Positions 1 to 18,570 of a stretch of 64,000 nt of DNA are shown here, one piece after another; the stretch's first letter is position 1; the number at the start of each line of letters is the position of its first letter. The position numbers and the translations under genes were made by a program. The notes beneath the pieces are model-generated. The model saw nothing but the letters and a program-made list of their open reading frames with translations. It searched no databases and was not told the DNA's origin. Origin of the DNA: an uncultured Candidatus Peribacteria bacterium (lineage in GTDB: Bacteria; Patescibacteriota; Gracilibacteria; UM-FILTER-43-11); assembly GCA_964458485.1 (NCBI GenBank), contig CAYWJA010000003.1, forward strand, positions 30,524 through 94,523, read 5' to 3'.

Positions 1-126
1 TTCTTCTTGCTGACTTTTTTACTGATTGATGCAGGTGTATGTAATACATCATCCGGTATTGTTACCCAGTTTGTATCTTTTTTCATTTTGTTTTTGTTAT
101 TTTTATTTTTTATTAGTTATATATTG

Positions 127-146
127 GCGAGGATATTCATCCTCGC
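127..146. terminator. Short GC hairpin downstream of the 787-aa gene
   Basis: GCGAGGAT-ATTC-ATCCTCGC, followed by TTTC on the plus strand. Confidence 0.4.
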
Positions 147-155
147 TTTCATTAC

Positions 156-2519
156 TTACTTATTCTTTCTCCTTCTGCCGATAATGGCAGCACCACCAAG
201 CATGGAAGCGGAAATTACAATCCATACTGCAACAGGACCACTTTTCGGCTGACTAGGTACTTTGGTCAAACTTGTATTAGAAAGTTTACTTGTTGTCTTT
301 TTTGCATTGCTATCGTTAGTAGTTGTTGTTTTCGAATCTGTAGATGAGCTAGTTGATTCAGTTTTAGCAGTAGAAGTGGATGAGCTTGTGTTTGATGATG
401 TTTGAGTAGCTACCACACCTGGCTGTAAATAACTTAAATATTTTGCCCCTTTCCCTGTAATAGTCACATTAGATGTTACTGGTAATTTTGAGCTAAGGTC
501 TTTAAGTGTTATGCCATCTATTGCTACATCTGTTTTATCTTTCGTTGTCACAAGTCTGCTATAAGTAATGGTGGCGATCTTATTAACAGCAATACTATCT
601 ATAATAATATTATTATTCTTATCTAACTTGGCCCCTGATAAATTTTCTATTGCACCAGCAGTCACATCACCGGTCGCAGAGCTAAAATATGGTTCAAGCT
701 GAATATTTGCTGCTGAAACTGCACTCGGATTTTTAATATTCATCTTAAAATAAACACGGGTGGTTTTGTTTTTTGGTAAAACAAGACCTGAACTTTTTAC
801 GCTTGCCTCTTTATATACATTGCCATCAATAGATGCTAATTTGCTGACTTCTAATCTTAATTCTCCAATATACATGGTACCTCCGCCGGAAGATGAAGTA
901 GAAGAATGACCTCCTCCGCCCAAGCCACCACCGGATGAAGAACTGCTTGAGCTACTGCCAGATCCACCAGACGAAGAAGATGAACCGGAAGAAGAACTTG
1001 ATGAAGAACTACTGGAGCTACTACTGGAAGAACTTGAAGATGAGCCAGATGATTTTTTAATATATTTCCCCACATAAACATGACTAGCTCCTGAAATAAG
1101 ATTAAATGTTATATCTTTTGGTGTTGTAAACCCGGATATTGCTTTAAATACAATTTTATATTGTATTCCAGGGCTAACACTTGATTTAAGCATAAAATTG
1201 TCTGGAGTCTTCCCTGAGCCATAATTATCTATATAAGTTGGATCGGTAACTGAAGAAATAGTATAAAAACCACTCAAGTTATTGGTACTAACTGTGATTT
1301 GTGTAGTTTCACTTGAAAGTGAAGAACTACCACTACTTTTTGATGAACTTGAGCTGGAAGATGAACTACTACCGGAGCTACTACCAGATGAAGAACTTAT
1401 ATATGTTCCTTCAAATCTTAGTGGCTTGCCGGTAATCAAATTGAATGTAATGTCTTTTGGTTTTGTGAAACCTATTACACTATCAAAAATTATCATATAT
1501 TTTGTACCGGGCTCCCCCATGGAACTCAAATTAAACGTTTTCTCACCTATCCCATATCTTGGTTCATCTAACAGATTGGTAAGGGATCTGATTGTGTACT
1601 TACCCTTTTCTATATTTGGCTTAACCGTTACGCTTGTAACACCTCTGGATGAAGAACTAGTGTTATCTGACGAAGTACTAATATATGTACCAGAGAATCT
1701 TTGTGGCTGATTAGTAATTAAACTAAAAGTAATATCTCTTGGGGTTATATAACCTGTAACACTATCGAATGTGATTTTATATTTTAATCCCGGGTTATCT
1801 CCTGAGCTTAAATTTATAGTAGATTCTCCTGTTCCCGTTCTTGGTTCATCTATTGGATTGTCAATTGATCGAATAGAATATTTACCATCAGAAATATTTG
1901 TTGAAACAGTTACAGCTGTGTAGCCTGTTGGAATAACGGCAGTAGAAGTTTTTTTTGCTATTTGATCAGATGGCCTTGTGGCCGGTTTAGTTGGATCAAT
2001 TGCATCGGACTTTGAATCTGTAAGCCCATCTGTTGGCACCTTAGCAGGCTTGGTTGGGTCGATCGCAACAGGAGCCTTTGTTTTATCCGTAATTTGATCA
2101 GATGGTAATTGTGTAATTTTAGTCGAATCGGTGGTCTTATCCACCATTTTGTCACTAGGCGTTTTTGGAGGGTATACATCATCCTTAAAAACCGGAACTT
2201 TTGTTAATGAGTCTGTTGGTACCTCCGCAGGCTTTGTGGGATCTGTGACTACGGGGGTCTTTTCAACTTTTTCTATAGTTGTTTTTACTGTTGTATCTGT
2301 TGTTGTTAAATCTCCTTTTAATAACTTCGATAATTGATTGAAGTTAAGTGCACCTGCAACAACTAAAACTATAAATACAGAAGCTAACCCAATAAATAAT
2401 GGTTTTTTGTATATTGGTATACTTTGAGCCGATTTATTTACAGGCTGTGCAGTATTTTGTGTGGGCGTTTGTGCCGTCACATTACCCTGTGTGTTTTGTG
2501 GGTTATTTTCTGTGTTCAT
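156..2519 (-). CDS. Large cell-surface repeat protein (787 aa) with Ser/Gly linkers and a C-terminal sorting-signal-like tail
   Basis: Long ORF. N-terminal hydrophobic segment PLFIGLASVFIVLVVAGAL. Pro/Thr-rich PTKPA-type repeats. Three ~85-aa repeats (KYKITFDSVTGYITPRDITFSLI / KYMIIFDSVIGFTKPKDITFNLI / QYKIVFKAISGFTTPKDITFNLI) separated by long Ser runs. C-terminus is VPSQPKSGP + hydrophobic helix + GRRRKNK. Confidence 0.8.
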   Translation of the reverse strand: MNTENNPQNTQGNVTAQTPTQNTAQPVNKSAQSIPIYKKPLFIGLASVFIVLVVAGALNFNQLSKLLKGDLTTTDTTVKTTIEKVEKTPVVTDPTKPAEVPTDSLTKVPVFKDDVYPPKTPSDKMVDKTTDSTKITQLPSDQITDKTKAPVAIDPTKPAKVPTDGLTDSKSDAIDPTKPATRPSDQIAKKTSTAVIPTGYTAVTVSTNISDGKYSIRSIDNPIDEPRTGTGESTINLSSGDNPGLKYKITFDSVTGYITPRDITFSLITNQPQRFSGTYISTSSDNTSSSSRGVTSVTVKPNIEKGKYTIRSLTNLLDEPRYGIGEKTFNLSSMGEPGTKYMIIFDSVIGFTKPKDITFNLITGKPLRFEGTYISSSSGSSSGSSSSSSSSSSKSSGSSSLSSETTQITVSTNNLSGFYTISSVTDPTYIDNYGSGKTPDNFMLKSSVSPGIQYKIVFKAISGFTTPKDITFNLISGASHVYVGKYIKKSSGSSSSSSSSSSSSSSSSSSSGSSSSSGGSGSSSSSSSSGGGLGGGGHSSTSSSGGGTMYIGELRLEVSKLASIDGNVYKEASVKSSGLVLPKNKTTRVYFKMNIKNPSAVSAANIQLEPYFSSATGDVTAGAIENLSGAKLDKNNNIIIDSIAVNKIATITYSRLVTTKDKTDVAIDGITLKDLSSKLPVTSNVTITGKGAKYLSYLQPGVVATQTSSNTSSSTSTAKTESTSSSTDSKTTTTNDSNAKKTTSKLSNTSLTKVPSQPKSGPVAVWIVISASMLGGAAIIGRRRKNK

Positions 2520-2527
2520 TTTTTTTA

Positions 2528-3622
2528 TTATTTATTTATTTTAATTTTCCTCCCCTTTTTCCTCCCAAAAACAACTGCACCACCAAGGCCTGCCGCGGAA
2601 AAAATTAACCACCCAACAAGTGGGCCGTTTTGCGGCTGCAAAGGAATACTGGCAACTGTTTTTTGAAATAAGGTGGCAAAAGGATGCGTTGAGCTAAGTG
2701 GCTGATTTACTATCACACCTACTTCATTTGAGTAATCACTTTCCTTATTATTACTATCGTAAGCAGTTACTGCAAAATAGTAGGTTTGATTATTGGTAAG
2801 ACCACTAAGTCGGTAACTGGTTAAATTTCCTATAACTCTACGTCTGGAATATTGACCACTAACTTGTCCGTAATAAATATTGAAACCAGACCTATATAAA
2901 TCAGTTGTACCATCCCATTTTAAATCAACATATCCAGACCCTGTATTAACTTTAAGATTTGTAGGGCGTTTTAATGTTATTACCGATGTACCCCCTCCTA
3001 TATTTGTATTTAATGTGGTTACTGGTGTTGAAGTTGTAGTTGTTACCACAGGTGGTGTTGTAACCGTTGGAGCTGCAATAACTCCTGGATTTAATGTAAT
3101 AGATAATTCTGCTGGTTTTTTAGATAAAATATTTAAAGGAAATCCTGAATCAATTATATTTACACTCGCATGGCCAAGTTCACTTACCTGATAATCATAA
3201 AAGCTGATTTTGGATGTTGCAGCAGTAGCTGCAATAACCTCAAAGTTCACAGAGGCTACTGTTGTTTCTGTCTTCGTTACACCTCCGGAAATATTAGATC
3301 GGCCAATTTTAACACGCCCTTCAGATGAAGCAACTGTATCTTCCCCTGGCGCAGATAATGTAAAAAGTGAACTTTTTGTATCTATTCCAGTGGCTTTTAA
3401 AGACTTTGCATCATAAGTTAACCAAGATCGAACGGAGATTATCTTATTTGCACTTGGATTCTTTAATACAATATCCACCTTAAATTTATCGCCTTTCTTG
3501 GCACTAGTTACAGAAGATTTCAGCATAAGCTCTGCATCTTTTGTAGCTGCTGCGTATGTTGGCACAATCCCTGATAGGATTATTACTATTGCCGTTAGTG
3601 TTGTTATTAGTTTTTTCATCAT
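2528..3622 (-). CDS. Secreted cohesin-like + FN3 protein with C-terminal sorting-signal-like tail (candidate anchoring scaffoldin)
   Basis: Signal peptide (..GIVPTYAAA). Residues ~28-165 are cohesin-like (KGDKFKVDIVLKNPSANKIISVRSWLTYDAKSLKA..VASVNFEVIA). Residues ~219-305 are FN3-like (PTNLKVNTGSGYVDLKWDG..YYFAVTAYDSNNKESDYSNEV). C-terminus is IPLQPQNGP + hydrophobic helix + GRKKGRK. Confidence 0.75.
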   Translation of the reverse strand: MMKKLITTLTAIVIILSGIVPTYAAATKDAELMLKSSVTSAKKGDKFKVDIVLKNPSANKIISVRSWLTYDAKSLKATGIDTKSSLFTLSAPGEDTVASSEGRVKIGRSNISGGVTKTETTVASVNFEVIAATAATSKISFYDYQVSELGHASVNIIDSGFPLNILSKKPAELSITLNPGVIAAPTVTTPPVVTTTTSTPVTTLNTNIGGGTSVITLKRPTNLKVNTGSGYVDLKWDGTTDLYRSGFNIYYGQVSGQYSRRRVIGNLTSYRLSGLTNNQTYYFAVTAYDSNNKESDYSNEVGVIVNQPLSSTHPFATLFQKTVASIPLQPQNGPLVGWLIFSAAGLGGAVVFGRKKGRKIKINK

Positions 3623-3623
3623 T

Positions 3624-3727
3624 CCTATTGGTGATCCTATTGGTGATCCGATTGGTGATCCGATTGGGGTTAAGCGGTTAAGCCCCTATTGGATTCCCTA
3701 TGGATCTCCCATTGGATTCCCTATTGG
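3624..3727. repeat. Tandem-repeat-armed hairpin, ATTGGTGATCC family
   Basis: Left arm (CCTATTGGTGAT)x4-like. Right arm CCCCTATTGGATTCCCTATGGATCTCCCATTGGATTCCCTATTGG. Loop around TTAAGCGGTTAAGC. Confidence 0.85.
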
Positions 3728-4347
3728 TTAATAATTAAAAGTGGGCTACTCGGTTTTTCGAGTACGTTATAAGGTCTTGTATCGATTAATGTATTTGCGG
3801 AAGTATGTCCGGTTAAATCTTCACGATAGTCATAGGCATCAATTGCAGCACTTTTTCCTTCTAAAACTTCAAAAGTAACTACTGCAACGTGTATTTCTTT
3901 GTCTGTAACAGCTGTAGAGCTAGAACGCCCCAATTTCATTAAGCCATTTGTACTATCGAATGCATTAGCATATGGTGCATTAAGCGTAAAAGCTGATTTT
4001 GCAACATCAACTTCCACACCTTTTAACTTCGTTGGATCATAACTCAACCAACTTTGTACCGAAGTTATTGGCTTTTGATTTGTATTATCTAAAACAATGG
4101 TTACTTTTACTTTTTTATCTTCCTTTGTGGATTTAAGCACTAATTTCACATCTTTTGCAGCAACTTTGGCTTTTTTTAATGTTTCCTGAATGCTCTCTGT
4201 TGTAGATTTTTTTGATGTTTTTACAGTTTTGGTTATCGATTTTTTATTGTCGACTTTTGAAACTGCACTATCATCCTTACAACCAGTAAGTAAACTGGAA
4301 AGGATTAGAATGACTGCCGTTGCGATGATTATATCCTTAGGTTTCAT
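3721..4347 (-). CDS. Lipoprotein with a single cohesin-like module
   Basis: Lipobox LSSLLTGC after an N-terminal hydrophobic stretch. Module KVKVTIVLDNTNQKPITSVQSWLSYDPTKLKG..IHVAVVTFEVLEG parallels the cohesin-like module of 2528-3622. Confidence 0.7.
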   Translation of the reverse strand: MKPKDIIIATAVILILSSLLTGCKDDSAVSKVDNKKSITKTVKTSKKSTTESIQETLKKAKVAAKDVKLVLKSTKEDKKVKVTIVLDNTNQKPITSVQSWLSYDPTKLKGVEVDVAKSAFTLNAPYANAFDSTNGLMKLGRSSSTAVTDKEIHVAVVTFEVLEGKSAAIDAYDYREDLTGHTSANTLIDTRPYNVLEKPSSPLLIINQ

Positions 4348-4373
4348 AATTGTTTGGGTTATTTTTGTTTTTT

Positions 4374-4430
4374 AGGTTGTAGGCTTATAGGTTGTAGGCT
4401 TGTAGGGATCTATTATAATCCTACATCCTA
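4374..4430. repeat. GTAGGCTTGTAGG-family hairpin (short right arm)
   Basis: AGGTTGTAGGCTTATAGGTTGTAGGCTTGTAGGGATCTATTATAATCCTACATCCTA. Shares unit and loop with 25051-25124. Confidence 0.8.
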
Positions 4431-4437
4431 ATTTTTA

Positions 4438-7400
4438 TTATTTAGTTGGTATTGTTGGTATTTTTGGAGATGAAGTAGTCTTAATAACAGTCCCACCGGC
4501 TGGCACAGATGTTGTAGGTACTGTTGAATCTGGTGTCTTTTTTATAGGTTTTAATACCTGACCAGATGTTGTTGTAGTGGTAGTTGTTGTACTTGCGCTA
4601 GATGCTGCAGATGAACTTGTGGTTTTGCCCGTACTATATGTTTTTCCATACATCGCAGAGAACATCGTAAAGTCTATAAAATCTACTTTTCCATCACCAT
4701 TAAAATCTCCCTGCATAGTAGTGGCCGCCTTTTTAACTGCACTAACATTTACAGCCTTAAAGAATTTTGCAACCGGAGCCTTCATTTTAACTCCTCCGGC
4801 AGAAGCAATATTTTTTATTTGTACACTATAACGCTTGCCAGATGTTTGAGTTGCAGTTTTTAAAATAATATCTTTACCTGTTTTTCCGAATGCAACTGAG
4901 TAAATAGGTAATTTTGTAGATGAATTTTCAGGGAATATTTCAAAATCATAACTGCCTCCATTCGAACTTGATGATTTACCAAGTTTTACACTTGAAGGCC
5001 TTAGTGGTTTCTGAAATTCAATTTCTACAGTATTAGAAGATGTAGCAGACACATAATGTACAACCGGCGGCCAAGTATTTGCTGTATACCCCTTAAAGAA
5101 TGCCTTAGTTGTTCCGGAAGAAAGAGAAATACCAGATGAATCTGTTATTTTGCCGCTGCCATTTACTGCATACTCAGTGCCTGACGTTTGACTTGCTGTA
5201 GTAAGGGTAACTATATTATTTGTTGCATTAATGGTGGCACCAATTACATTTAGAGTTTTACTTACGTTGTTCTTGTCGGTAATTGTAAATTCTTTACCAC
5301 TTGCTGATATTGTTGAAGATAATATTTCTTCATTAAATGTAACCTCAAGCTGTGTAGAAGACGTAGGAACTGCTGCTACAATTTTTGGAGGAGTACTGTC
5401 TGCTGTATAGCCTTTACTGTCTTTTACAATAACGGCAATTTTACCCCTTCCTACTTTTCCGCTTTTATCTGTAGCTACAACTTCGACATCGTAAGCTTTG
5501 GAGCTACCTAGTGTAGTTTTTGCAATAGTAACTCCGGATAGTACAAACCATTGGCCGGCACTTCCTTCTTTATAGCTCGGCTTCATACACACAATAGTTT
5601 TTGAATTTGTATTACATGCACTGCTAACAGATGATGAGCTACTGGTACTAGTACTGGTTTTAGATGAGCTTGTACCAATTCCTATACTACTTGCGCTAGT
5701 GGTAGTACTGGCTTGCTTAAAATCAGGTGGTGTTACAGCACCTAATTGTCCAATTTTAGAAAGATTTACAATTACTGATGACAAATCGCTATCATCATCA
5801 CGCACGAATGCATAAAGTGTAGTGGTTGTCTTGCCGTCGTTAATTGCAACTTTTGGAGATGTATATGATTTTGAAGAAAGAACTATTGGTGCATCTCCAA
5901 CTATTTTCGGATTGGCTAAGTCTAATTGTAAAATCATACTTGCTGTTGTGCCATTTGAATCTGTAGCAATAACCTGAATTTTATGGACACCATAAGTTGC
6001 TGTTTTTGGGGGAATAATTGCTTTTGATGAATAAAGCGCGCTTTTTGCAGTTTTAGAAGCAGTTGTGCTTGCTGTTAACGCGGTAGGTGTAATGCCCATT
6101 GAAGATGAATAAGCAACTACGCTAGTAATATCACTTATGCCACTAGAGTCGCTAACCATTGCATTTACAGTAAATGAAGTTTTTCCATCTCTTGCAATTC
6201 TTTTCCCTGGAGAAACGTAGCTATTTACACTATCAATTTTTGGTCCGGTTGCTGCAGCAGATACATTTACACTTATTGTTTTTGTAACACTTTCACCAGT
6301 GCTATCTGAAGCAGTAATTTTTACTGAATATGTTTTCTGCGTAGCAGTTGTAGGTATAGTGAATTTATCAGAAACATAAAATCCTGTTGTTTGTTCTGTC
6401 GGAGTACTGGCTGTTTTTGTAGTACTTGTAGTTGATGTAGATGCAGTAGTTGATGTAGATGCAGTAGCTGATTTCAATGTTACGAATCCGGCACCTAAAG
6501 CTCCTAAGTCTGCTACAACTGATTTAATAGTACCAATTCCATCAGTATCCGTAATTTTTGCAGAAATTGTTGCAGTAGTTTTACCGTCTGGCGGAATAGT
6601 AGTAGGGCTAATATATGCCTGATCTATCTTTGGTGCCACACTCTTGTAAATATCTTTAGTAACCATTAAAGAAACAGTACCTTTAACCGCCTCCGATCCT
6701 TTTTTAATTTCTACAGGCAATGCATATGCTGTAGTACTAGTTGGTGTGATTGTAGAAACTGTAGTTGTATATGTGTAATATTGTTGATTTTTTGGCTGAA
6801 TACCACTTGCCTTTGTTAAAAGTTGTGATTTATTACCACCAATTTGTGCAAGATTAATAATTGCACTATCTATATTATTCAAACCTACTTCATCTTCTAC
6901 AAGCACCCAGAAAGTCACCTTAGTTTTTCCATCTGGAGCTACTTTATAAGGTAATGCTTTGGAACTTGCAGATACAATTTTCATTTGTTTTTTAAGTCCG
7001 CTTACTACCAATGCCTTAGAAAAAGTTGTTGTTTCACTACTTTTGTTTATAAATTTAAGATCATAAACTCCTGCAGTAAAAGCCTTGGCAACTGTAAAGC
7101 TTAATGCTCCTGAACTTTGTTTGGCAATTTTTGCCTCTACAGTGCCAACAAGTACTTTCGTAACTGTATCTAAATTTGTACCAACTGCTACAACTGTTTT
7201 ATCAGCATCATTTGTAATAGTAGATGGAGTAACCTTAGTTACACTAATTGAAGCTGCTTTGTACCCAATAAAGTTCATTAAAGTATTATTTACCAATTTT
7301 AATCCACCTGAGTCTGTTACTCCGTTGAATCTGATAAAGTAATTTTTGTCTGCAATTAATTTAGGAAGTGTTACATTTATTGTTGTACCTGCTGTATCTA

Positions 7401-8664
7401 GTTCAGTTTTTACAAGTGTTACCTTTGCGGAAGAATTATCATAAATTTCTATATTTATAGGGGTGACTGTACTAGATGTAAGCGCTCCGCTAAAAGTTAA
7501 TGCTACATTTGTACTTGATTTTACAGTCACAGTTTTTAGCAATACATCACTAACATTAATACCATCTGGGTTTTGGTATCCATCGAATTTAACTATATTA
7601 TATTTTGAACCTAATGCTCCTGTTGTATTACCCGTTATATTTTTATTCTTTAAGGTTAATACATATTGCTGTCCCTTCTGTAAATCTGCACTTGTTTTTA
7701 AAATTACTGTTTTTTGATCATAGCCTGTAAATGTTAAATGGCCATATCCAGTTACTGCACTTGATATAGCTACAGGTGTATTTGTTGAACTATGAGTTAA
7801 TACATAATCTGCTGCATTACCAACATTAGTTAAAAGGTCGGAAAAACGAACAACTATATGATCTTTACTTAATGCTTCTGCATTAAAAGCCCGCAGGTTC
7901 GCCTTGCTGGTTAGCTTTAATGTTCCCGTATCTATACTAGTAAAAGTTTTACTTGTTTTATAAGGAATTGATCCTGCAGCTGCCTCAACTACTTCAACAT
8001 TGGAGGTTGTCATAGTAATGCTGCTGCCAGCAGTACCACTAACCTTTGTAGATAATTTTATAAGAGGTCTTGTATCGTCCTTTTTCAAATTAACTGCTTT
8101 ACTTGAAAAAAGAGATACTGTTACTTCTCCGTTTGTACTTGTATTTACACTTTTTAAATCTGCAGACTGAAATACTGTACCGGTTGTAGCATTACTATCG
8201 AATACAATTGAATTGGTATTAAAAGTAAGTGCGGTTACTGGGCTATATTTTAATTTAAATTTAATACTATGTAATTTTACATCTGAGGTAATTGCACTCT
8301 GCCTTAATTTAACTGCTATATTTCCACTATCTGCATGACCTGCTGTGTAACTTGGAATATATAAAGCTGCAGATCCTGCCGGAGCTTTTTTAACCTCCGT
8401 AAGAGCTGCCCTGAACAAACTTGGATTTGTGTAGCCAAGTACACCCACCGCGACCGCAAATACAGCTGCCACACTTATTAGTGCATATTTTATTTTTGGG
8501 ACTTGATACCATTTCGCCGGTTGTGATTCCGATTGGTGATCCATTGGTGATCCATTGGTGATCCCATCGGGGTTATTGTGATCATCCGTTTGAGTTCCCC
8601 CATTGGATCCCTCCATTGGATCTCCTACTGGATCCCCTATTGATTGTGTGTTTGTTTCGTCCAT
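4438..8664 (-). CDS. Giant surface protein (1408 aa): N-terminal TM anchor, cohesin-like module, many Ig-like repeats, dockerin/EF-hand-like loop near C-terminus
   Basis: TM YALISVAAVFAVAVGVLG followed by NPSLFRA. Repeated beta-rich ~90-aa units with Thr/Ser linkers. DFNGDGKVDFIDFTMF near the C-terminus. The first ~55 codons are encoded by a repeat hairpin (8529-8643). Confidence 0.8.
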   Translation of the reverse strand: MDETNTQSIGDPVGDPMEGSNGGTQTDDHNNPDGITNGSPMDHQSESQPAKWYQVPKIKYALISVAAVFAVAVGVLGYTNPSLFRAALTEVKKAPAGSAALYIPSYTAGHADSGNIAVKLRQSAITSDVKLHSIKFKLKYSPVTALTFNTNSIVFDSNATTGTVFQSADLKSVNTSTNGEVTVSLFSSKAVNLKKDDTRPLIKLSTKVSGTAGSSITMTTSNVEVVEAAAGSIPYKTSKTFTSIDTGTLKLTSKANLRAFNAEALSKDHIVVRFSDLLTNVGNAADYVLTHSSTNTPVAISSAVTGYGHLTFTGYDQKTVILKTSADLQKGQQYVLTLKNKNITGNTTGALGSKYNIVKFDGYQNPDGINVSDVLLKTVTVKSSTNVALTFSGALTSSTVTPINIEIYDNSSAKVTLVKTELDTAGTTINVTLPKLIADKNYFIRFNGVTDSGGLKLVNNTLMNFIGYKAASISVTKVTPSTITNDADKTVVAVGTNLDTVTKVLVGTVEAKIAKQSSGALSFTVAKAFTAGVYDLKFINKSSETTTFSKALVVSGLKKQMKIVSASSKALPYKVAPDGKTKVTFWVLVEDEVGLNNIDSAIINLAQIGGNKSQLLTKASGIQPKNQQYYTYTTTVSTITPTSTTAYALPVEIKKGSEAVKGTVSLMVTKDIYKSVAPKIDQAYISPTTIPPDGKTTATISAKITDTDGIGTIKSVVADLGALGAGFVTLKSATASTSTTASTSTTSTTKTASTPTEQTTGFYVSDKFTIPTTATQKTYSVKITASDSTGESVTKTISVNVSAAATGPKIDSVNSYVSPGKRIARDGKTSFTVNAMVSDSSGISDITSVVAYSSSMGITPTALTASTTASKTAKSALYSSKAIIPPKTATYGVHKIQVIATDSNGTTASMILQLDLANPKIVGDAPIVLSSKSYTSPKVAINDGKTTTTLYAFVRDDDSDLSSVIVNLSKIGQLGAVTPPDFKQASTTTSASSIGIGTSSSKTSTSTSSSSSVSSACNTNSKTIVCMKPSYKEGSAGQWFVLSGVTIAKTTLGSSKAYDVEVVATDKSGKVGRGKIAVIVKDSKGYTADSTPPKIVAAVPTSSTQLEVTFNEEILSSTISASGKEFTITDKNNVSKTLNVIGATINATNNIVTLTTASQTSGTEYAVNGSGKITDSSGISLSSGTTKAFFKGYTANTWPPVVHYVSATSSNTVEIEFQKPLRPSSVKLGKSSSSNGGSYDFEIFPENSSTKLPIYSVAFGKTGKDIILKTATQTSGKRYSVQIKNIASAGGVKMKAPVAKFFKAVNVSAVKKAATTMQGDFNGDGKVDFIDFTMFSAMYGKTYSTGKTTSSSAASSASTTTTTTTTSGQVLKPIKKTPDSTVPTTSVPAGGTVIKTTSSPKIPTIPTK
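8529..8643. repeat. ATTGGTGATCC-family hairpin inside the 5' coding end of the 1408-aa gene
   Basis: CCGATTGGTGATCCATTGGTGATCCATTGGTGATCCCATCGGGG ... CCCCCATTGGATCCCTCCATTGGATCTCCTACTGGATCCCCTATTG. Confidence 0.85.
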
Positions 8665-8714
8665 TTTATTTTTGTTATTTATTTGTACGTGGACAAACGA
8701 TTGTCCACTTTCGA

Positions 8715-11700
8715 TTACTTATTTACTTTATTAAAAAGAACTGCAACGTCGATCATGTCGACATCTCCGTCACCGTCCATGTCCGCAGCCTGTTTTTGGG
8801 CTGCTGTAGCAGTTGGTAAATTACCTCCTGCAATCTGAAAAGCTATTAATGCGTCTATTGTTGTAATTTTTCCATCACCATCTACATCACCACTTGCCAC
8901 CTTACCTATATATATAGGCATTACAGCGCTTGTCACCTTTCCTGACTTATCAACTATTTGCAAAACTAATGTATAACTTCCATCCGCCATATTTGCATCA
9001 ACTGGAATTTGAACTGGAATTTCGTAAATTTTATAATACTTTGCAGTAGTTGTTGTACCTCCTCCAGAAGAAGGACTACTTGAAGATGAGCTGGAACTAC
9101 TTGAAGAACTGCTTGAACTTGAACTAGATGAACTTGAGCTACTTGAAGAACTGGATGTCCCACTAGTCGTTCCGCTACTCGCTGTTGTTACATTATTTAC
9201 ATGTGTAGTAGCTGTATACCAAACAGCGCTTTTATCATCTTTTATTGTCGGATAAGTTTTTTTCTCTGTTCTAACAATATAAGAATTGATCTGGTCAATG
9301 TCGGCAATTGTTTCCGGTGAAGTTACTTTTACACTCAATTTAACCTGCCCACCTTTCTCGGCAGGATTACTACCAATTCTTTTTATATAATCAATTATGG
9401 CTTTTGAAGACACCTCTACGGTTAATGTGTTAACACTATTAACCTTTGTCCCATCAGGCTTTGCTATCTGTACATATAAATTAGTAGTACCAGTTGTGTC
9501 GCCTTTTGCCAAAATGCCAGAAGTTAAATATTTGTTACTTAATTTGTTGGTAGGATTATATTTCCATGTAACGTCATTGAAATTTAATTCCTTCATGGAG
9601 CCATCTAGATATTTTCCAAGAATGCGCAATTTATAAGTTGAATTTGGATGCAATGCTAATTTGCTTTCTACAGCAGGGACAACTATCACCTCCCCGCTTG
9701 AGGTTGTAACATCCTCTAGAGAAATTGTGCTATCTGCAGGTGTTAATTTTAAAAGACCTGGTGTATTTGATACTTTTGTAACTTTAATAAATGGCTGACC
9801 ATTCAACTCACTCAGTGCATCGATTAATCCATCTTTTGTTGTAGCTTTGCCATCAGGATCATTTAATATAGCATTTATTTTGTCTTTTTCTGTTGTAGCT
9901 GTAGATGTGGAAGGTAGAGTAGGAATTATTTTTGTGGTACTTCCGATTGTTATTGTTGCACCTGCAGCCTTAGATGAATTAACCATAAGGTATGCACTTT
10001 TATATGCATTACTTTTATCCATTACATCTAATTTTGAGATTGTGTCTTTATGTAAGGTTAAAATAAGGCTCGACAAAGTACTGAATGCACTTTTTTCGCA
10101 TGCTAATTTTGTAGTTGTACTTTTAGATGACTTTCCGTAACCGTTTTTAGAATCACATACATCACATAATCCTGATGTGCCACCATATCCTGTATTGCAT
10201 TGACATTTTCCCGTTGTGGTGTTGTATTGCCCATATACACATTTTAGTAACGGAGCTTTTGCTTTTACCGTAACTAAACCTTGTCTAAAATTTATAGCAT
10301 TTTTTGTAGTTGCTGAGGCAGAAGTTGTATAATATGAATTTGACGTTGATTTTTCATCGGCGTCTATAAGAATCTTTGTACCATCTGCCAATCCAGACAA
10401 AATACTTGTTTGAATTCTAAACAATAAAGCATTATCAGCCACATTTTTAGCAACCGTAGGTTTAACCTTAAGAGTTATTGTATCTTTTCCGCTTAATGTA
10501 GTAGATAAAGTAGTAACTACTGTTTCTCCACTAAATATAGTATCTGGTGAATAATTATTAACAAAGGCATATTGACTCTGAGTAGCGGTCGAAACTGGCT
10601 TAAGTTTAATCTGCAGTTCTGTTAATCCTGTTATTGCCTGAGCTGCTTTCACATCTATATATCCTTTAGTGCCAGCCTCAGCTGTATAGTCTGCAGGGAT
10701 ATAAACATTACGCAATGGTGTAGATGTATCTGTGGAAACATTTTCTGTACCACCTTTAAATGTACTTGTGATTTTTGTGACGGGAGTAGCTGTCTTGGTT
10801 TTTAATGTACAAACTGAACTTTTTAATTCATAACCATCAAGACAAGTGGCACAATCCTTTTTCGGATCAAGATTGGAACCTGTAGCACAAGCAGTACATA
10901 CTGCTACACCCTTAGTAGCCTTACAAGTTCCTCCATTTTTCTTACATACATTAGATGTGGATGAACAAGGATCTGTAATACATTTATTAGAGGAATCTAA
11001 TACATAACCTGTACTACATTTACACTGACCTGTTGATGCATCACACGAGCTATTTGTATCACTACATGTAACTCCGTAACACTTATCTACAACACATGTT
11101 GGGTAGCCCTTAAAACCTGCACTACATTTGTCACATACGGTGGTTTTAGTGCCCGCATAACCAGTATTGCATGTACACTTGCCATCACTACAAGTGCCAT
11201 AACCACAGCTGATATTTTTACATGTGTCTATGGTTATTTGTCCTGATTTAAAACTTGGCGCACCTCCTATACCCCCAATCCCTAAATCAATATAAGACGA
11301 AGAAGATGCGGAGGTTGATATTTTTTTATTACGTATATATATAGTCTGTTTGTTTTTACTCTTATTGCTAACTGATACAAAAAGCTTAAACAATACATCA
11401 TTATCTTTGAACTCATATAATTTATTAAAAGGGCCAAATTCAACCGAATATTCGCCAATGCCAACATTAATTTTTTCACTTTCTTTTTCTAATTTTGCCC
11501 CTTTCTTATCAATCTTCCATATAGCATATTCGTCCGAAGAAATTATAAATGTCAATTTAAATGCTTTAACATTTTTTAAATTCCTTCCTGCTCTAACTTC
11601 CACATAATCAAAATCACCTGGTGCTGCAATATAATTTGGTATATAAAACATATCATCTATCTTTGATGTATCATTTGTGCCAAGTTGAAATTTATCGTAG

Positions 11701-12035
11701 CTACCAGTAGTTTTCCCAACAATTTGTGAGCCTCCTCTGGTTTGACTAGCTGTCGGATCTGTCGGTATAATTGGTGCAACACCTCTAGTATTTCTGGCAG
11801 CATCTATGGCTCTATCTTGCCCCTCTGCCGATTGTGGTCCACCAGCCCCCCCTTCCTCTTCCACTACGATTGCAGGAGCCCCTCTTCTACCTTCTCCAAT
11901 AGTTGCCTTAAACAAACTCGGATTCTTATAAGCCACAATGCTCAATGCAGTTACTACAACCACAACGAATACGGTTAGAATATTGCGCCATAGGTGGCTT
12001 GTTTTTTTGATTTCTGTTTGGTTTTCGTTTTCCAT
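8715..12035 (-). CDS. Giant surface protein (1106 aa): TM anchor, EGF-like Cys-rich region, cohesin-like modules, poly-Ser, C-terminal two-repeat dockerin
   Basis: TM ILTVFVVVVVTALSIVA followed by NPSLFKA. Cys-rich residues ~272-409 (CGYGTCSDGKCTCNTGYAG..QCKCSTGYVLD). 26-residue Ser run. C-terminus GDVDGDGKITTIDALIAF..ADMDGDGDVDMIDVAVLF matches the type-I dockerin duplicated Ca-binding pattern. Confidence 0.85.
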   Translation of the reverse strand: MENENQTEIKKTSHLWRNILTVFVVVVVTALSIVAYKNPSLFKATIGEGRRGAPAIVVEEEGGAGGPQSAEGQDRAIDAARNTRGVAPIIPTDPTASQTRGGSQIVGKTTGSYDKFQLGTNDTSKIDDMFYIPNYIAAPGDFDYVEVRAGRNLKNVKAFKLTFIISSDEYAIWKIDKKGAKLEKESEKINVGIGEYSVEFGPFNKLYEFKDNDVLFKLFVSVSNKSKNKQTIYIRNKKISTSASSSSYIDLGIGGIGGAPSFKSGQITIDTCKNISCGYGTCSDGKCTCNTGYAGTKTTVCDKCSAGFKGYPTCVVDKCYGVTCSDTNSSCDASTGQCKCSTGYVLDSSNKCITDPCSSTSNVCKKNGGTCKATKGVAVCTACATGSNLDPKKDCATCLDGYELKSSVCTLKTKTATPVTKITSTFKGGTENVSTDTSTPLRNVYIPADYTAEAGTKGYIDVKAAQAITGLTELQIKLKPVSTATQSQYAFVNNYSPDTIFSGETVVTTLSTTLSGKDTITLKVKPTVAKNVADNALLFRIQTSILSGLADGTKILIDADEKSTSNSYYTTSASATTKNAINFRQGLVTVKAKAPLLKCVYGQYNTTTGKCQCNTGYGGTSGLCDVCDSKNGYGKSSKSTTTKLACEKSAFSTLSSLILTLHKDTISKLDVMDKSNAYKSAYLMVNSSKAAGATITIGSTTKIIPTLPSTSTATTEKDKINAILNDPDGKATTKDGLIDALSELNGQPFIKVTKVSNTPGLLKLTPADSTISLEDVTTSSGEVIVVPAVESKLALHPNSTYKLRILGKYLDGSMKELNFNDVTWKYNPTNKLSNKYLTSGILAKGDTTGTTNLYVQIAKPDGTKVNSVNTLTVEVSSKAIIDYIKRIGSNPAEKGGQVKLSVKVTSPETIADIDQINSYIVRTEKKTYPTIKDDKSAVWYTATTHVNNVTTASSGTTSGTSSSSSSSSSSSSSSSSSSSSSSSSSSSPSSGGGTTTTAKYYKIYEIPVQIPVDANMADGSYTLVLQIVDKSGKVTSAVMPIYIGKVASGDVDGDGKITTIDALIAFQIAGGNLPTATAAQKQAADMDGDGDVDMIDVAVLFNKVNK

Positions 12036-12044
12036 TTTTTTTCT

Positions 12045-12108
12045 AGGAGTCAGGAGTCAGGAGTCAGAAATCAGTACTGATTTCTTATTCCTTATTCCTT
12101 ATTCCTTA
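12045..12108. repeat. Tandem-repeat-armed hairpin (AGGAGTC x3 / TTATTCC x3)
   Basis: AGGAGTCAGGAGTCAGGAGTCAGAAATCAGTACTGATTTCTTATTCCTTATTCCTTATTCCTTA. Pairing needs G-U wobbles. Confidence 0.75.
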
Positions 12109-13113
12109 AGTTAATAAGTTCATAGCTAAAAGGATTCCGAGGCTCATAGATAGGGATTCCTCTAGTAAATTAAAATTAATATGTCTTACAATCGGTAAAT
12201 GTTTCCATAATCGAGAAAAATATTGAAACCGATTTTTGTGTGGTTCTGACTCCTTTAACATTTGCATAAGTTCTTTGTGCACATGGCTCCTACTCCAATG
12301 ATTTGTATATTTTTCTATTAAGATGTAACGAACTGTGGAGAATGTAATTAATGTAATGAAGTAAAGAGAAAGTGCCACTGCAAAAATTCCTGCAAAGAAG
12401 TAAACTATCATTGATCCGGTTAATGCAAAAAACATTGCCGTAATTATTTGTGCAGGATTTATGTAATCTTCTTTTGTTTTAAAATAAATTTTTGTAAGAC
12501 TATGTATTAAATAAATAATACTTGCTGTAACTGGTATCCAGATACTAGTTGATTTTGAAAGCAGGCTAAAATTTAATATATTCCACGATCCGTAAAGCAT
12601 TTCTGGAACCTTAACCATTAGGTTTAATCCCCAGAATGTAAAAAAGAATAAAGCTATTTGAGCAACAACAAGTATTGCACCACGATGATGAATTCTTTCG
12701 TTAACATCATAAATTTTATGTAATTCATCTTCAGCTGCACCAACGCTAAGTTCACCTCGGTTAAAACGATCCACAAGCTTCTTGTGAAATAGATGAATCT
12801 TTTTTTGTTTAAACTGAATTCTCGCACTTGGATACAAAAGTATTAATTCAACTGCAATAGCAAGAACTACGATGGAAATTAATACACTTCCACCTGACAT
12901 TTGCATTAAGCTGTTAAACACGATTGAAAAAATCTTAGCAACTTCTGCTTTGAACCCAGTGTAAACCAAAGGACTGACCTGTGCGCCGGTTAGCACACTT
13001 TCTGTAGCACTGTTGTGCAATTCTACACCAGATGTATTGCCTTGCATAAAGGCCAGGTAAACACTTAGTGCAAATAGTGTTAGTGTTGCTGTTATTAAAC
13101 TTAATTTTTTCAT
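12106..13113 (-). CDS. Polytopic membrane protein, probably a divergent YidC/Oxa1-type insertase
   Basis: Signal/TM at the N-terminus. The pattern GSVLISIVVLAIAVELILLYPSARIQFKQKK..ELHKIYDVNERIHHRGAILVVAQIALFFFTFWGL resembles the YidC TM2, coiled hairpin and TM3 layout. About 5 TM segments. Assignment is by eye only. Confidence 0.45.
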   Translation of the reverse strand: MKKLSLITATLTLFALSVYLAFMQGNTSGVELHNSATESVLTGAQVSPLVYTGFKAEVAKIFSIVFNSLMQMSGGSVLISIVVLAIAVELILLYPSARIQFKQKKIHLFHKKLVDRFNRGELSVGAAEDELHKIYDVNERIHHRGAILVVAQIALFFFTFWGLNLMVKVPEMLYGSWNILNFSLLSKSTSIWIPVTASIIYLIHSLTKIYFKTKEDYINPAQIITAMFFALTGSMIVYFFAGIFAVALSLYFITLITFSTVRYILIEKYTNHWSRSHVHKELMQMLKESEPHKNRFQYFSRLWKHLPIVRHINFNLLEESLSMSLGILLAMNLLT

Positions 13114-13297
13114 TTTTATTTAATTTTTATTGCTCAATTACTCGATTTCTCAATTGCTCAATTTAAATCTCATAACAAATCAACAAATAAGGAAATCTTA
13201 ATATTATAGCAAATTTTCTTATAATGAGCAATTCCTTGGGGTTGACACGTTATTTGGTTTATTGCGCATAAAAAACTGAAAATCAGACTAGCGTAAA

Positions 13298-13326
13298 TTG
13301 ACACTTTTGCAGATTTTGTGTAAAAA
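13298..13326 (+). promoter_or_regulatory. Sigma70-like promoter candidate for the VirB6-like/pilin operon
   Basis: TTGACA, 17 nt, then TAAAAA. It would place MITE copy a in the 5' leader. Confidence 0.35.
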
Positions 13327-13407
13327 ATTTGTCAAGTTTGGTGTTTTTTCGTTAATCCTGGTTTGTAGTTGTGGTGAGTTTGTATGAAGACGGAGTGTAT
13401 TAACCCT

Positions 13408-13595
13408 GTTTGTCATCCCGCACTTGATGCGGGATCCAGATAATGAAGTGATGGTTATTTTACTAATACACTAATTATCCTATTTACTGATATTGCGAAA
13501 ATATTCGCATATTCAGATTGTCTGATTATAAGTAAATAAGTGATAATATAATTCATTAATCATATGGATCCCCAGTCAAGCTGAGGATGACAAAC
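13408..13595. mobile_element. MITE-like element, copy a (188 bp)
   Basis: Left end GTTTGTCATCCCGCACTTGATGCGGGATCC. Right end GGATCCCCAGTCAAGCTGAGGATGACAAAC. AT-rich core homologous to copy e. Confidence 0.8.
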
Positions 13596-13622
13596 GGTAG
13601 CAATATCATTCATACCATTAAG

Positions 13623-13643
13623 TCCGGGATGACAAATAGTGAA
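13623..13643. mobile_element. Solo right-end fragment of the MITE-like family
   Basis: TCCGGGATGACAAATAGTGAA shares GGGATGACAAATAGTGAA with the right end of copy c (18714-18734). Confidence 0.5.
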
Positions 13644-13737
13644 GCGATACTCCATTCAAAATAGGATGAAAATTATAGAGACAAATTTGCTTTTCCTCCC
13701 TGTTCATGCTATAATAAAGGGATATATTTGTATCTAT

Positions 13738-16341: not shown

Positions 16342-16360
16342 CCTTATTTCGCATTTACAC

Positions 16361-16470
16361 TTTGTCATCCCGGACTTGCCTGCCCCGCCATAGGCGTGGG
16401 ATCCGGGATCCACCGATTGCGGGCAAACCATGGATCCTGATCCCGATAAAATCGGGACAGGATGACAAAA
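16361..16470. mobile_element. MITE-like element, short copy b (110 bp)
   Basis: TTTGTCATCCCGGACTTGCC...CCCGATAAAATCGGGACAGGATGACAAAA with three internal GGATCC sites. Lies between the VirB6-like stop and the first pilin start. Confidence 0.75.
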
Positions 16471-16477
16471 AACAAAA

Positions 16478-17143
16478 ATGATAAAAGCAATATTCAAAAA
16501 ATCACTGAGCATTGTAATACTTGCAGGACTTCTATTAAGTCCGGTAATGGCTTATACAGCAGGTTCGACAACAGGTGGCACTGTTATTAAAAATGCAACA
16601 ACAGCAAGTGGCACTGCAACAACAGCAAAAAAGGCTGTGGTAACTAAAACTCAGACTGCGTTGGGAGAAGTATCGAATTTTGGTGAATTAATTTCATTGA
16701 TTTGGAATTATGGTTCACAAATTATTATTGCATTTTCTGTTTTCTTTATAATCCTCGGAGCCTTGTTCTATATAACATCTGCGGGGAATGAAGAAAAAAT
16801 CAATCAGGGCAAACAAATGGTATTCGGATCACTTATTGCTGTTATAATTGTGATGTTTTCCGGAGTTTTAATGCGTACTTTGCATAAAACATCTCAAGGC
16901 ACCACCGGGAATTTAACCGATGTGCCAACTGTAATTAATAATGCCACTAATATATTGGTTGGGTTCGTGGCGGCATTCTCGGTTTTAATGTTTATTTACG
17001 CTGGCATTAATTATATGCTTGCCCGCGGTGATGCAGATAAAATTAATAAAGCACATCGGGCTTTACGATACGCAGTACTTGGGCTTATTATTGGAGTACT
17101 TGCTTACGGAATAGTAAATTCTGTAATCGCCTATCTTATTTAG
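16478..17143 (+). CDS. Protein with two tandem VirB2/TrbC-like (T4SS pilin) modules
   Basis: Signal peptide, then two copies of TM helix + loop + TM helix: ..FFIILGALFYITSAGNEEKINQGKQMVFGSLIAVIIV.. and ..FSVLMFIYAGINYMLARGDADKINKAHRALRYAVLGLIIGVL.. Confidence 0.7.
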   Translation: MIKAIFKKSLSIVILAGLLLSPVMAYTAGSTTGGTVIKNATTASGTATTAKKAVVTKTQTALGEVSNFGELISLIWNYGSQIIIAFSVFFIILGALFYITSAGNEEKINQGKQMVFGSLIAVIIVMFSGVLMRTLHKTSQGTTGNLTDVPTVINNATNILVGFVAAFSVLMFIYAGINYMLARGDADKINKAHRALRYAVLGLIIGVLAYGIVNSVIAYLI

Positions 17144-17217
17144 TTTTTATTTTTTAATTTTTAATTTTTATTGAACTACTAATTAGTTAGCCAAATAAAA
17201 ACTAAAAACTAAAAATT
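17142..17217. repeat. AT-rich tandem-repeat-armed hairpin between pilin genes
   Basis: AGTTTTTATTTTTTAATTTTTAATTTTTATT..CTAATTAG..AATAAAAACTAAAAACTAAAAATT. Confidence 0.7.
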
Positions 17218-17535: not shown

Positions 17536-17565
17536 GAAGCTGTTTTGACTTATGGATAGGTTTAT

Positions 17566-17720
17566 ATTTCTGATTTCTGATTTTTGATTTCAGATTCGAT
17601 TTAGTATTTAGTATTTTTACATTTACTATCTGATTATTTAATTAATATGGTTAGTAAATGATAAATATCAGAATCCTAAATCTAGATTCGAATCTGAAAT
17701 CTGAGTTCTGAAATCTGAGA
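17566..17720. repeat. ~155-bp imperfect palindrome (TCTGATTTC units)
   Basis: ATTTCTGATTTCTGATTTTTGATTTCAGATTCGA... ...TCGAATCTGAAATCTGAGTTCTGAAATCTGAGA. Confidence 0.8.
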
Positions 17721-17853
17721 TAATCATTTTTTAGCTATAAAACAATAAAATTATAAAACGTCTACAAAAAGTTATCATTTCCCCCTTGTGCTAAAAAATG
17801 ATTCTTGTATACTTTTTTTGAACAATAAACACTGAAATCAACACTTAATTATC

Positions 17854-18540: not shown

Positions 18541-18570
18541 TTTTATTTTCAAACAAAAACAAAAACAAAT

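Follow-up and report, generated by a model that had tools for sequence, protein, structure and literature searches.

What are the long hairpins, with arms made of complementary short tandem repeats, that lie between the genes of this 64,000-nucleotide (nt) stretch of DNA (hereafter the window)? A first-pass annotation had listed 20 of them, beginning with the one at positions 3624-3727, as sharing one architecture: several copies of a short unit, a loop, and several copies of the complementary unit. These structures are real, hugely over-represented in spacers, built from arrays and grouped into genome-specific families. They sit at the ends of co-directional genes and are a trait of a particular clade of Peregrinibacteria, in which the repeat units turn over rapidly. 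The window itself is part of a chromosome of the Candidate Phyla Radiation (CPR; Peregrinibacteria/Peribacteria), with a G+C content of approximately 36%, a coding density of 87% and an intergenic share of 12.7%. It carries bacterial-chromosome genes (groES/groEL, topA, uvrB, secDF, a string of arginine biosynthesis genes and an asnS/aspS-type synthetase gene), and its nearest relatives by GroEL and GroES are metagenome-assembled genomes (MAGs) labelled Patescibacteria, Candidatus Peribacteria or Peregrinibacteria.

The 20 loci were folded as sense-strand RNA and compared with 200 dinucleotide shuffles each. All 20 form long stem-loops at the listed positions (z -1.95 to -10.15), and at 18 of them none of the 200 shuffles folds equally well. 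The weakest folds are those of 4374-4430 (z -2.2) and 17142-17217 (z -1.95 in the sense direction; -20.7 kcal/mol on the opposite strand). At most loci, Tandem Repeats Finder (TRF) detects an array in at least one arm; three loci show little tandem character: 39093-39187 (GTT-type arms flanking an 18-nt palindrome), 55676-55717 (2.4 copies) and 57500-57569. At least seven independent metagenome assemblies contain contigs that match the window at 99.9-100% identity, also through the hairpins, which rules out an assembly artefact; several independent contigs break off inside or beside a hairpin. Samples containing this population include JGI 3300009374, 3300009375 and 3300009008 and ENA ERZ23499038-ERZ23499405.

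The excess over shuffled intergenic sequence, on which the first-pass annotation had staked its claim, is large. Across the window there are 77 arrays with a period of 5-16 nt, 54 of them in spacers, where they are approximately 16 times denser than in genes; shuffled intergenic DNA yields 1.55 arrays (maximum 7) versus 52 in the real sequence. Spacer arrays have periods of 7 nt (18 arrays), 8 nt (10), 9 nt (6) and 11-12 nt (15). Ten of 25 adjacent intergenic array pairs are complementary, versus 0.81 expected from non-adjacent pairs (P = 2.7e-9). When 100-nt segments were scanned with a cut-off of -35 kcal/mol mean minimum free energy (MFE), 5.8% of intergenic segments fell below it; outside the 59.7-61.3 kb region the only coding signal was a bidirectional terminator at 18.6 kb. 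Covariance models from Rfam, applied at gathering thresholds, matched no family in the whole window.

Hairpins occupy 20 of the 47 gene junctions, or 20 of the 37 spacers of at least 43 nt (54%), which is well short of the "nearly every gene boundary" first described. Gene orientation matters: the proposed comparison of tandem with convergent junctions gave 18 of 27 for co-directional and none of three for convergent junctions, with two of five divergent junctions and neither of two of unknown orientation occupied (co-directional versus the others, 2 of 10; P = 0.023). The stem starts no more than 10 nt from the upstream stop codon at 11 of the 18 co-directional loci, and at 11 of 18 it ends no more than 11 nt from the downstream start; 15 of the 18 hairpins lie within 11 nt of one codon or the other. 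Both codons are approximately 10 nt or less from the stem base at six or seven loci (3624, 12045, 17142, 23920, 39994, 43840 and perhaps 36737). In spacers with at least 50 nt of spare room, five of eight hairpins abut a codon versus 1.9 expected (P = 0.017). All gene starts are predictions of our own; where a start is called too far upstream, as for uvrB and the open reading frame (ORF) 4438-8664, hairpin arms can be read as coding sequence. A Shine-Dalgarno (SD) motif (GGAG, GAGG or AGGA) was found at -15 to -5 of none of the 42 gene starts (one AGGA lies 4 nt upstream), and the leaders are A/T-rich; from this absence, the organism appears not to use SD sequences.

The hairpins do not resemble classical terminators, as the first-pass annotation had already noted. 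A scan for terminator-like sites (stem plus T-tract) found almost none of the 20 loci and returned 16, 18 and 19 sites versus 13.3, 13.0 and 11.9 in shuffled sequence. The reported lack of a T-tract is borne out, and A-runs often follow the hairpin in the sense direction. Neither a G+C-rich stem with a U-tract nor a location at operon ends or convergent junctions (0 of 3) characterizes the set. A canonical bidirectional terminator (GC stem plus T-tract) is present at the convergent junction 18541-18649, and another hairpin, listed among the canonical signals, follows groEL. The arg gene string has a single sigma-70-type promoter (12/12 match), a terminator at its end and two tandem-arm hairpins within.

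The arms of the hairpins are 20-60 nt long and usually hold 3-5 copies of a 7-, 8-, 11- or 12-nt unit, giving elements of 42-155 nt. Units vary among loci, although not to the extent of a different unit at each, as had been claimed: approximately seven unit families, partly noted at the time, recur (Table 1). Each arm is internally homogenised (the F1 3' arm matches itself at 32/32 positions, both arms of 12045 at 14/14), and the two arms are imperfect complements in which an identical mismatch is repeated in every unit. This pattern indicates that the arms evolved by unit-wise duplication and homogenisation and not by one perfect inverted duplication. Arms may be unequal (5.3 versus 2.4 copies at 31833), and five unpaired arrays of the same families had been missed (62079-62110, 18614-18639, 44844-44866, 46857-46894 and 13129-13163). 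The unequal arms and the first four of these arrays imply that array growth needs no partner arm.

Table 1. Hairpins, unpaired arrays and unit families of the window (a colon separates the two arms of a hairpin)
Feature	Strand	Family and units	Position	Fold or array statistics
3624-3727	-	F1: sense (CCAATAGGRGAT)n, loop, (GGATCACCAATC)n	fills stop-to-start gap; two cohesin-domain genes	TRF period 12, 3.8 copies per arm; sense MFE -36.2, z -4.40
4374-4430	-	F2: array (GTAGGCTT/GTAGGTT), short complementary right arm		weak hairpin; TRF period 8/15; z -2.21, 4/200 shuffles equal
8529-8643	-	F1	likely downstream ATG (8544, ORF 4438) inside 3' arm, from translation	TRF period 11, 3.0 copies at 100%; z -3.22
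12045-12108	-	heptamers (AGGAGTC)3 : (ATTCCTT)4; C/T mismatch in every unit	upstream TAA in base; start 9 nt beyond	z -4.60
17142-17217	+	F7, AT-rich: (TTTTTAA)n : (TAAAAAC)n	stop to start, between two type IV secretion system (T4SS)-pilin genes	z -1.95
17566-17720	+	F6: (ATTTCTG)4 + (ATTTAGT)2.6 : (AATCTGA)4		61-nt arms, 74% complementary; z -7.41
23920-23994	-	F3: GTGCGAGT / CTTGAGAC	overlaps final 40 nt of ORF 23955-25007; argC start 8 nt past end	z -5.39
25051-25124	-	F2: (GTAGGCTTGTAGGAT)2.2 : (TCCTACA)3	7 nt after argF stop	z -10.15
31833-31963	-	F5: (GTTTCCAAATA)5.3 : (AAACAATTTGG)2.4 + nested 17-nt mini-hairpin	abuts true uvrB ATG 31832	z -6.13
36737-36841	+	F1; perfect 3' arm (CCAATCGGATCA)3.8	begins one base past TAA of trypsin/SLH gene	z -4.13
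39093-39187	+	GTT-rich arms, palindrome GGACGCAGATCTGCGTCC at apex	start codon 1 nt beyond	z -6.69
39994-40080	+	F7: (TAGTTTA)3.9 : (TAAAAAT)3.9	stop in base, start 3 nt beyond	z -5.46
41319-41436	+	F1 variant: (ATAGAGGACCCA)3.2 : (CAATCGGGTCAC)3.3		z -4.82
43840-43963	+	12-mer: (CGAATTGTTGGG)3.7 : (CCACAACCCGCC)2.5	secDF/RNase H spacer, reaches start codon	z -6.87
46446-46532	-	F4 octamer: (TAGTGCTT)3.9 : (ACGACAGG)3.5	11 nt before start codon	z -4.86
47268-47406	.	F6b: (CATTTCG)6.7 : (AATGCGA)4.6	divergent spacer, abuts start of ORF 47405	z -8.66
48547-48627	+	F4 octamer: (TTAGTGCT)5.1 : (AGCACTAC)3.6	upstream of topA	z -5.77
55676-55717	.	near-perfect 42-nt palindrome, two 9-mers per arm	divergent promoter region	22-nt arms, 95% complementary; z -9.50
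57500-57569	+	F3	begins at TGA of DUF3352 gene; groESL promoter and CIRCE then follow	z -6.69
57954-58060	+	F5 + nested mini-hairpin	groES/groEL spacer	z -7.03
62079-62110	+	unpaired F3: (CTTGAGA)4.4	asnS/aspS-type gene start (62115) 4 nt downstream	
18614-18639	.	unpaired F6: (ATTTCTG)3.7	adjoins canonical bidirectional terminator	
44844-44866	.	unpaired F6-type array		
46857-46894	.	unpaired F6-type: (AATCTAA/AATCAGA)5		
13129-13163	.	unpaired octamers: (ATTGCTCA)4.4	16 nt upstream of yidC-like start	
Family F1		ATTGGTGATCC type	four copies in window: 3624, 8529, 36737, 41319 (variant)	
Family F2		GTAGGCTT	4374, 25051	
Family F3		CTTGAGAC/GTGCGAGT	23920, 57500, unpaired 62079	
Family F4		GTGCTGTA	octamer loci 46446, 48547	
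Family F5		CCAAATAGTTT	31833, 57954	
Family F6		ATTTCTG/ATTTCGC	17566, 47268 (F6b), unpaired 18614; F6-type 44844, 46857	
Family F7		TTTTTAA	17142, 39994	

F1 is a dispersed family: its four window copies can be aligned from end to end (105-118 nt) with a fifth copy from an unrelated metagenome contig (L093); all five have unrelated flanks and share the same orientation relative to the flanking genes. No target-site duplication was seen when the five copies were aligned with their flanks. One arm (GGATCACCAATC) is almost invariant across copies. A metagenome scan for the F1 unit dimer gave 14 hits, of which 12 are unrelated (mostly repeats in apparent coding sequence of other organisms), one is the true F1 copy in L093 and one is an F1-like array at a contig end (L087). 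The consensus structure has 35 pairs, and in the 41319 copy a U-A pair is changed to C-G on both sides in all three units, which counts as one compensatory event. A peptide reading of F1, one frame of which gives a PIGD-type repeat, was rejected because the 7-, 8- and 11-nt periods break the frame and the true gene starts lie beyond or inside the arms. The (GGATCACCAATC)n arm at 3630-3667, 36798-36841 and in other F1 copies also contains the 8-nt sequence GGATCACC, opposite AGGAG or AGGGG; the 8-mer matches the conserved 3' end of 16S rRNA. We treat this match and the SD-like opposite arm as probably coincidental; they are absent in other families. A comparable pairing, of AAGGAA with CUCCU units, is found in the 12045 hairpin.

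GATC, whose presence near the axis of many hairpins had been singled out, is at expectation (237 observed versus 238 expected genome-wide), and the idea of a GATC, Dam or restriction/methylation role was rejected on that basis. The enrichment of GGATCC in spacers is due entirely to family F1 and a family resembling miniature inverted-repeat transposable elements (MITEs) that is described below.

Comparison with related contigs and loci (L numbers; densities were obtained with a conservative paired-array detector) shows that the architecture outlasts the sequence. Synteny with 39-63 kb of the window extends to L105 (GroES 96% identical), L107 (95%) and L002-L004 (GroEL 78-85%). A repeated-arm hairpin is present in all three of the window, L105 and L107 at the CoA-binding/NTP-transferase, secDF/RNase H and groES/groEL spacers, with unrelated units: at the first of these spacers, AGTTTWT in the window, the ATATCAAATTTTAA type in L105, and ATGTCCAGTGTCC with GGACATC as its opposite arm in L107. 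L004 carries (GTGGACCGAATT)3 between groES and groEL, and an element related to the 47268 hairpin lies at 3265-3379 of L002. A few families are shared (F6/TTTCTGA by the window, L002, L105 and L107; TTAGTCC by L105 and L107), and F2-F5 were not found in the compared stretches of the sister genomes, though they recur in the window. Per 10 kb, L107 has 3.0 paired arrays, the window 2.0 and L105 1.5. Such arrays are lacking at most of 80 other GroEL-centred loci, apart from isolated examples in other CPR bacteria (Portnoybacteria L026, Komeilibacteria L016, Saccharibacteria L080 and Falkowbacteria L078) and a few Bacillota (L025, L035 and L057). Very large hairpins of this design include the (TAGAATT)9 : (ATTCTAA)9 of L026 (4530-4659), the (GTTGAGT)6 ... 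(AACACTC)8 of a Ruminococcus MAG (L057, 6827-7040) and the near-perfect (GAAGCGNN)n hairpin of L016 (8722-8798).

The groES-groEL operon is co-transcribed in bacteria where it has been studied, and hairpins lie in its intergenic spacer in the window and in L004, L013, L025, L026, L035, L047, L080, L105 and L107; two of these, L025 and L035, have an SD sequence (GGAGG) between the hairpin and the groEL start. Among 78 such spacers from other genomes, 15 of the 30 without an SD sequence hold arrays, versus 4 of the 48 with one (P = 6.6e-5), a contrast confounded by phylogeny because the SD-less genomes are mostly CPR. Within the population itself, strain comparison had been proposed as a way to detect arm-length polymorphism. 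It was carried out on contigs with identical GroES or pilin proteins from at least seven samples (99.9-100% identical); it revealed four single nucleotide polymorphisms (SNPs), all outside the hairpins, which is too little variation to bear on arm length.

Hairpins of this general kind have a precedent. Short tandemly repeated repetitive (STRR) hairpins in bacterial spacers were first described in cyanobacteria around 1990, and their role has been unproven since. The units of STRR1-3 are CCCCAGT, TTGGTCA and CAACAGT, to which the units found here are unrelated. Like those of the window, the cyanobacterial elements are intergenic, heptamer-type arrays that pair into hairpins between co-transcribed genes, with several unit families per genome and a sequence that varies among close relatives while the structure stays (PMC2670836; also the title of Jackman & Mulligan 1995, as listed in PMC4284476). 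Unlike them, the present hairpins belong to a small-genome CPR bacterium and not to a filamentous cyanobacterium, reach periods of 11-15 nt and occupy 54% of sizeable spacers at approximately 2-3 paired arrays per 10 kb. Between hupS and hupL, STRR hairpins were suggested to stabilise the transcript or couple translation, which is likewise unproven (PMC2670836). In Anabaena, the sites at which nif/vnf operon transcripts are processed coincide with intergenic stem-loops, and the products of processing have longer half-lives (PMC4284476). The long simple sequence repeats of Mrazek et al. (2007), as summarised in PMC4679880, have 5-11-nt units, most commonly heptamers, are attributed to polymerase slippage, exceed expectation by far and occur sporadically across phyla; in that summary they are direct arrays only, in contrast to the adjacent complementary pairs that abut gene ends here. 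The TAACTGA heptamers of marine Beggiatoaceae, some Cyanobacteria and Bacteroidetes, for which a post-transcriptional or translational role was proposed (MacGregor 2015; PMC4679880), also lie in spacers without canonical ribosome-binding sites, a few nt upstream of starts. They are a single unit genome-wide in 169 direct sets versus one indirect, whereas the window has many families that typically form hairpins.

Other known elements are less similar. Intrinsic terminators share a stable stem just past the stop codon; the stems here are far longer, with periodic mismatches and no U-tract, and are operon-internal and absent from convergent junctions. In Nostoc punctiforme, small palindromic elements are reportedly embedded in tandem-heptamer hairpins (Elhai et al. 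2008), which recalls the palindromes at or near the apex of 39093, 31833 and 57954, although sequences and host differ. Repetitive extragenic palindromic (REP) sequences stabilise upstream mRNA in E. coli. Like REPs, bacterial interspersed mosaic elements and REPINs, the present hairpins are dispersed extragenic stem-loops, mostly downstream of genes and plausibly transcribed; unlike them, they measure 42-155 nt, have arrayed arms and no tag outside the stem, and are accompanied by no REP-associated tyrosine transposase (RAYT) in the window. REPs measure 20-40 nt, have stems of 5-13 bp, carry a GTAG or CGTC tag that is unpaired, and are often RAYT-linked (PMC3733652). GTAG is confined here to the repeated units of F2 and F4, and the size of the elements is outside the REP range, in agreement with the first-pass view that these are not ordinary REPs. 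Nor did the F1 alignment show the terminal inverted repeats with target-site duplication of a MITE. Literature searches found no paper on tandem-arm spacer hairpins in CPR bacteria. Cyanobacteria are already known to have elements of this kind, and direct arrays have been described in several phyla; what is notable here is the density in a streamlined genome, the presence of several families at unlinked loci and the conservation of architecture with replaced sequence.

We lean, without quite reaching an even chance, towards a combined reading: the hairpins would be the CPR counterpart of STRR-type spacers, slippage-built and transcribed as intercistronic stem-loops that are not terminators. 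Its structural part is near certain, and its functional part stands well short of an even chance. Replication slippage, which had been proposed as the source of the arrays and is the most economical one (heptamer-dominated periods, arms homogenised unit by unit), would keep making and homogenising arrays in unconstrained spacers; the periods match those of the long simple sequence repeats as summarised in PMC4679880. Some hairpins, F1 most clearly, would also spread within the genome as whole 105-118-nt copies. Complementarity of the arms would be retained while unit sequences turn over fast, with pairing maintained by selection or by copying between arms, as suggested by three observations: adjacent arrays are complementary more often than expected, a compensatory change has propagated through the units of one copy, and hairpins persist at orthologous spacers. 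Transcribed within polycistronic mRNAs, the stem-loops would shield a neighbouring cistron (the upstream one at its 3' end or the downstream one at its 5' end) or mark sites of processing; stems that enclose stop and start codons at their base would gate translation of the next gene in an organism without SD sequences. On this reading the hairpins probably affect mRNA stability, processing or translation rather than terminate transcription. The co-directional bias, the abutment of codons, the operon-internal sites (groES-groEL and arg) and the retention of architecture while units are replaced all support it.

Several observations pull the other way. The position statistics involve small numbers and our own gene starts, and every functional step is inferred. 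Many arrays are unpaired or have unequal arms, and the groES-groEL spacers of L002 and L003 hold heptamer arrays that are not complementary. Clear covariation is limited to a single event that one F1 copy repeats in all its units, and the near-clonal populations, lacking polymorphism, allow no rates to be estimated. Finally, the antisense fold is the more stable at approximately 12 of 17 loci, because sense mismatches of A.A or A.C become U.U or G.U on the other strand. Asymmetry in wobble pairs between the strands was considered as a test for selection on RNA and set aside as uninformative: it is not significant, depends on the family and is explained by purine-rich sense strands.

The main rival, a serious one although we consider it less likely than not, is that the hairpins are a non-adaptive by-product or selfish DNA, made by slippage plus template-switch inverted duplication or hairpin copy-and-paste, and that they are tolerated, perhaps softened by their mismatches, without any role. 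Unpaired and unequal arrays are common, units are completely replaced between genomes whose GroES proteins are 95% identical, families are dispersed within a genome and peculiar to it, the sense strand usually gives the weaker fold, and similar arrays turn up sporadically in unrelated lineages, all of which fits such an origin. Ten adjacent complementary pairs where 0.8 are expected, however, demand a directed process or selection; the architecture persists at orthologous spacers in three or four genomes, stop and start codons are abutted more often than under random placement, and approximately 100 nt of ballast in half of the spacers would be odd at a coding density of 87%. The most interesting remaining option, though a rather improbable one, is a translational gate, in which a terminating ribosome melts the stem base and exposes an SD-less start, so that the second gene is translated only after the first. 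The absence of SD motifs at the usual distance from any of the 42 starts, the six or seven loci with both codons at the stem base, the starts 8544 and 31832 in or against a 3' arm, the association of arrays with SD-less groES-groEL spacers (15/30 versus 4/48) and the Beggiatoaceae repeats beside start codons in spacers poor in ribosome-binding sites (PMC4679880) are what recommend it. That association is confounded by phylogeny, gene starts are predictions, many hairpins lie at a distance from at least one of the codons (17566, 41319, 48547 and 57500), and the groES-groEL hairpin lies near the stop and leaves a free leader of 23-36 nt.

Movement by a RAYT or other transposase, as REPIN- or MITE-like non-autonomous elements, is improbable. 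F1 does align at full length, in constant orientation to the flanking genes, at unrelated loci (four in the window and L093), F2-F5 recur in the window and are absent from the compared sister stretches, and GTAG/CTAC occurs inside F2 and F4 units; yet F1 shows neither target-site duplication nor terminal repeats distinct from its arms, and copy number and period differ between copies, implying local slippage after any spread. The suggestion of RAYT substrates finds no support in the window, where no transposase, of the Y1 type or other, was found among approximately 47 ORFs in 64 kb, and neither the size of the elements nor their arrayed arms recall REPs, which are 20-40 nt long and carry an unpaired GTAG or CGTC tag (PMC3733652). 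The leading idea of the first-pass annotation, U-tract-independent terminators or insulators between genes, fares worse and is very unlikely: stable stems do follow stop codons closely at 11 of 18 co-directional loci, and the 57500 hairpin lies between a gene end and the next promoter, but the T-tract is missing, terminator-like sites are near shuffle expectation, the three convergent junctions (one with a classical bidirectional terminator) have no such hairpin, and hairpins occur inside likely operons, between groES and groEL in many genomes and within the arg string. Least credible of all is a role at the level of DNA, as arrays bound by a nucleoid or regulatory protein or as cruciforms affecting supercoiling or replication. 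The 11-12-nt periods are close to one helical turn, the GGATCACCAATC arm of F1 is nearly invariant, and the palindrome at 55676, in a divergent promoter region, may be an operator instead of a member of this set; most units, though, are 7-8 nt, most loci have no link to a promoter, and the units show no relationship from one locus, or one orthologous spacer, to the next, hence no single binding protein fits.

If the hairpins are functional, as the combined reading has it, they would offer a sequence-independent and quickly renewable means of setting mRNA stability or translational coupling in operons, and would be relevant to operon prediction in CPR MAGs; as a by-product, they would instead be evidence of a strong, lineage-specific process of slippage and palindrome formation. 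A broader and frankly speculative extension is that fast-evolving tandem-repeat hairpins serve as general operon "punctuation" in bacteria that lack SD sequences (CPR, perhaps cyanobacteria, Bacteroidetes and Beggiatoaceae). The stem base would join stop and start, a ribosome or nuclease would control the next cistron there, slippage would supply the stems, and selection would act on structure and position and not on sequence.

Other signals accompany the two operons mentioned above. A terminator-like stem with a T-tract (27360-27382, minus strand) separates the 12/12 promoter (27522-27494) from the argG start (27337), and may be a leader attenuator of the arginine genes. Upstream of groES, at 57579-57640, a canonical sigma-70-type promoter (11/12 match, TTGACA-16-TAGAAT with TG) is followed by an element like CIRCE (controlling inverted repeat of chaperone expression), TTGGCACTC-N9-AAGTGCTAG. 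Because the equivalent spacers of L003, L004, L105 and L107 share this element, HrcA-type heat-shock control appears to be retained in this CPR clade.

Smaller palindromes are found in and around the tandem-arm hairpins. The palindrome GGACGCAGATCTGCGTCC is at the apex of 39093 and also of a non-tandem hairpin at 29803-29862. The 18-nt palindrome, GGACGCA(G/C)AT(C/G)TGCGTCC, occurs four times, in ORFs at 16176-16193 and 45407-45424 and in spacers at 29824-29841 and 39136-39153. The spacer copies are at hairpin apices; the ORF copies are in frame on opposite strands, both as AVGDA...P-type peptides, and resemble in-frame palindromic insertions such as Rickettsia palindromic elements. A 17-nt mini-hairpin of the TCCCGATnnnATCGGGA type, which may be a very small insertion element, is nested in the F5 hairpins 31833 (31932-31948) and 57954 (58005-58021) and is also present in a MITE-like copy (16441-16457). 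The MITE-like family is distinct from the tandem-arm hairpins: it has four copies of 108-190 nt, all in spacers (13407-13595, 16362-16470, 28439-28588 and 41053-41241), with terminal inverted repeats TTTGTCATCC(C/T)G.ACTTG.T.C.GGATCC ... GGATCC...GGATGACAAA, each end of which is a small hairpin.

The remainder of the window has features of its own. Positions 1-18540 encode cohesin/dockerin-domain surface proteins, a 1400-aa protein, a YidC-like insertase, a TrbL/VirB6-like protein and three T4SS-pilin paralogues, a cluster that looks like a CPR-type secretion or attachment apparatus. At 59900-61250 the G+C content is 47%, versus approximately 35% elsewhere; both strands have long ORFs and are predicted to fold strongly, and a (CTTCTT)n array is present at 60107-60153. 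ORF 60104-61153 (minus strand, 349 aa) has no Pfam hit, and 59.7-61.5 kb has no Rfam match, a permissive scan giving sub-threshold chance hits. An independent scaffold (L099) differs at 59900-61250, having a 10-N gap and then sequence foreign to the window. Finally, ORF 37804-38574, whose product has no Pfam match, contains a 63-nt (21-codon) tandem repeat in 3.3 copies (38210-38472), and the product looks like a leucine-rich-repeat-type protein.

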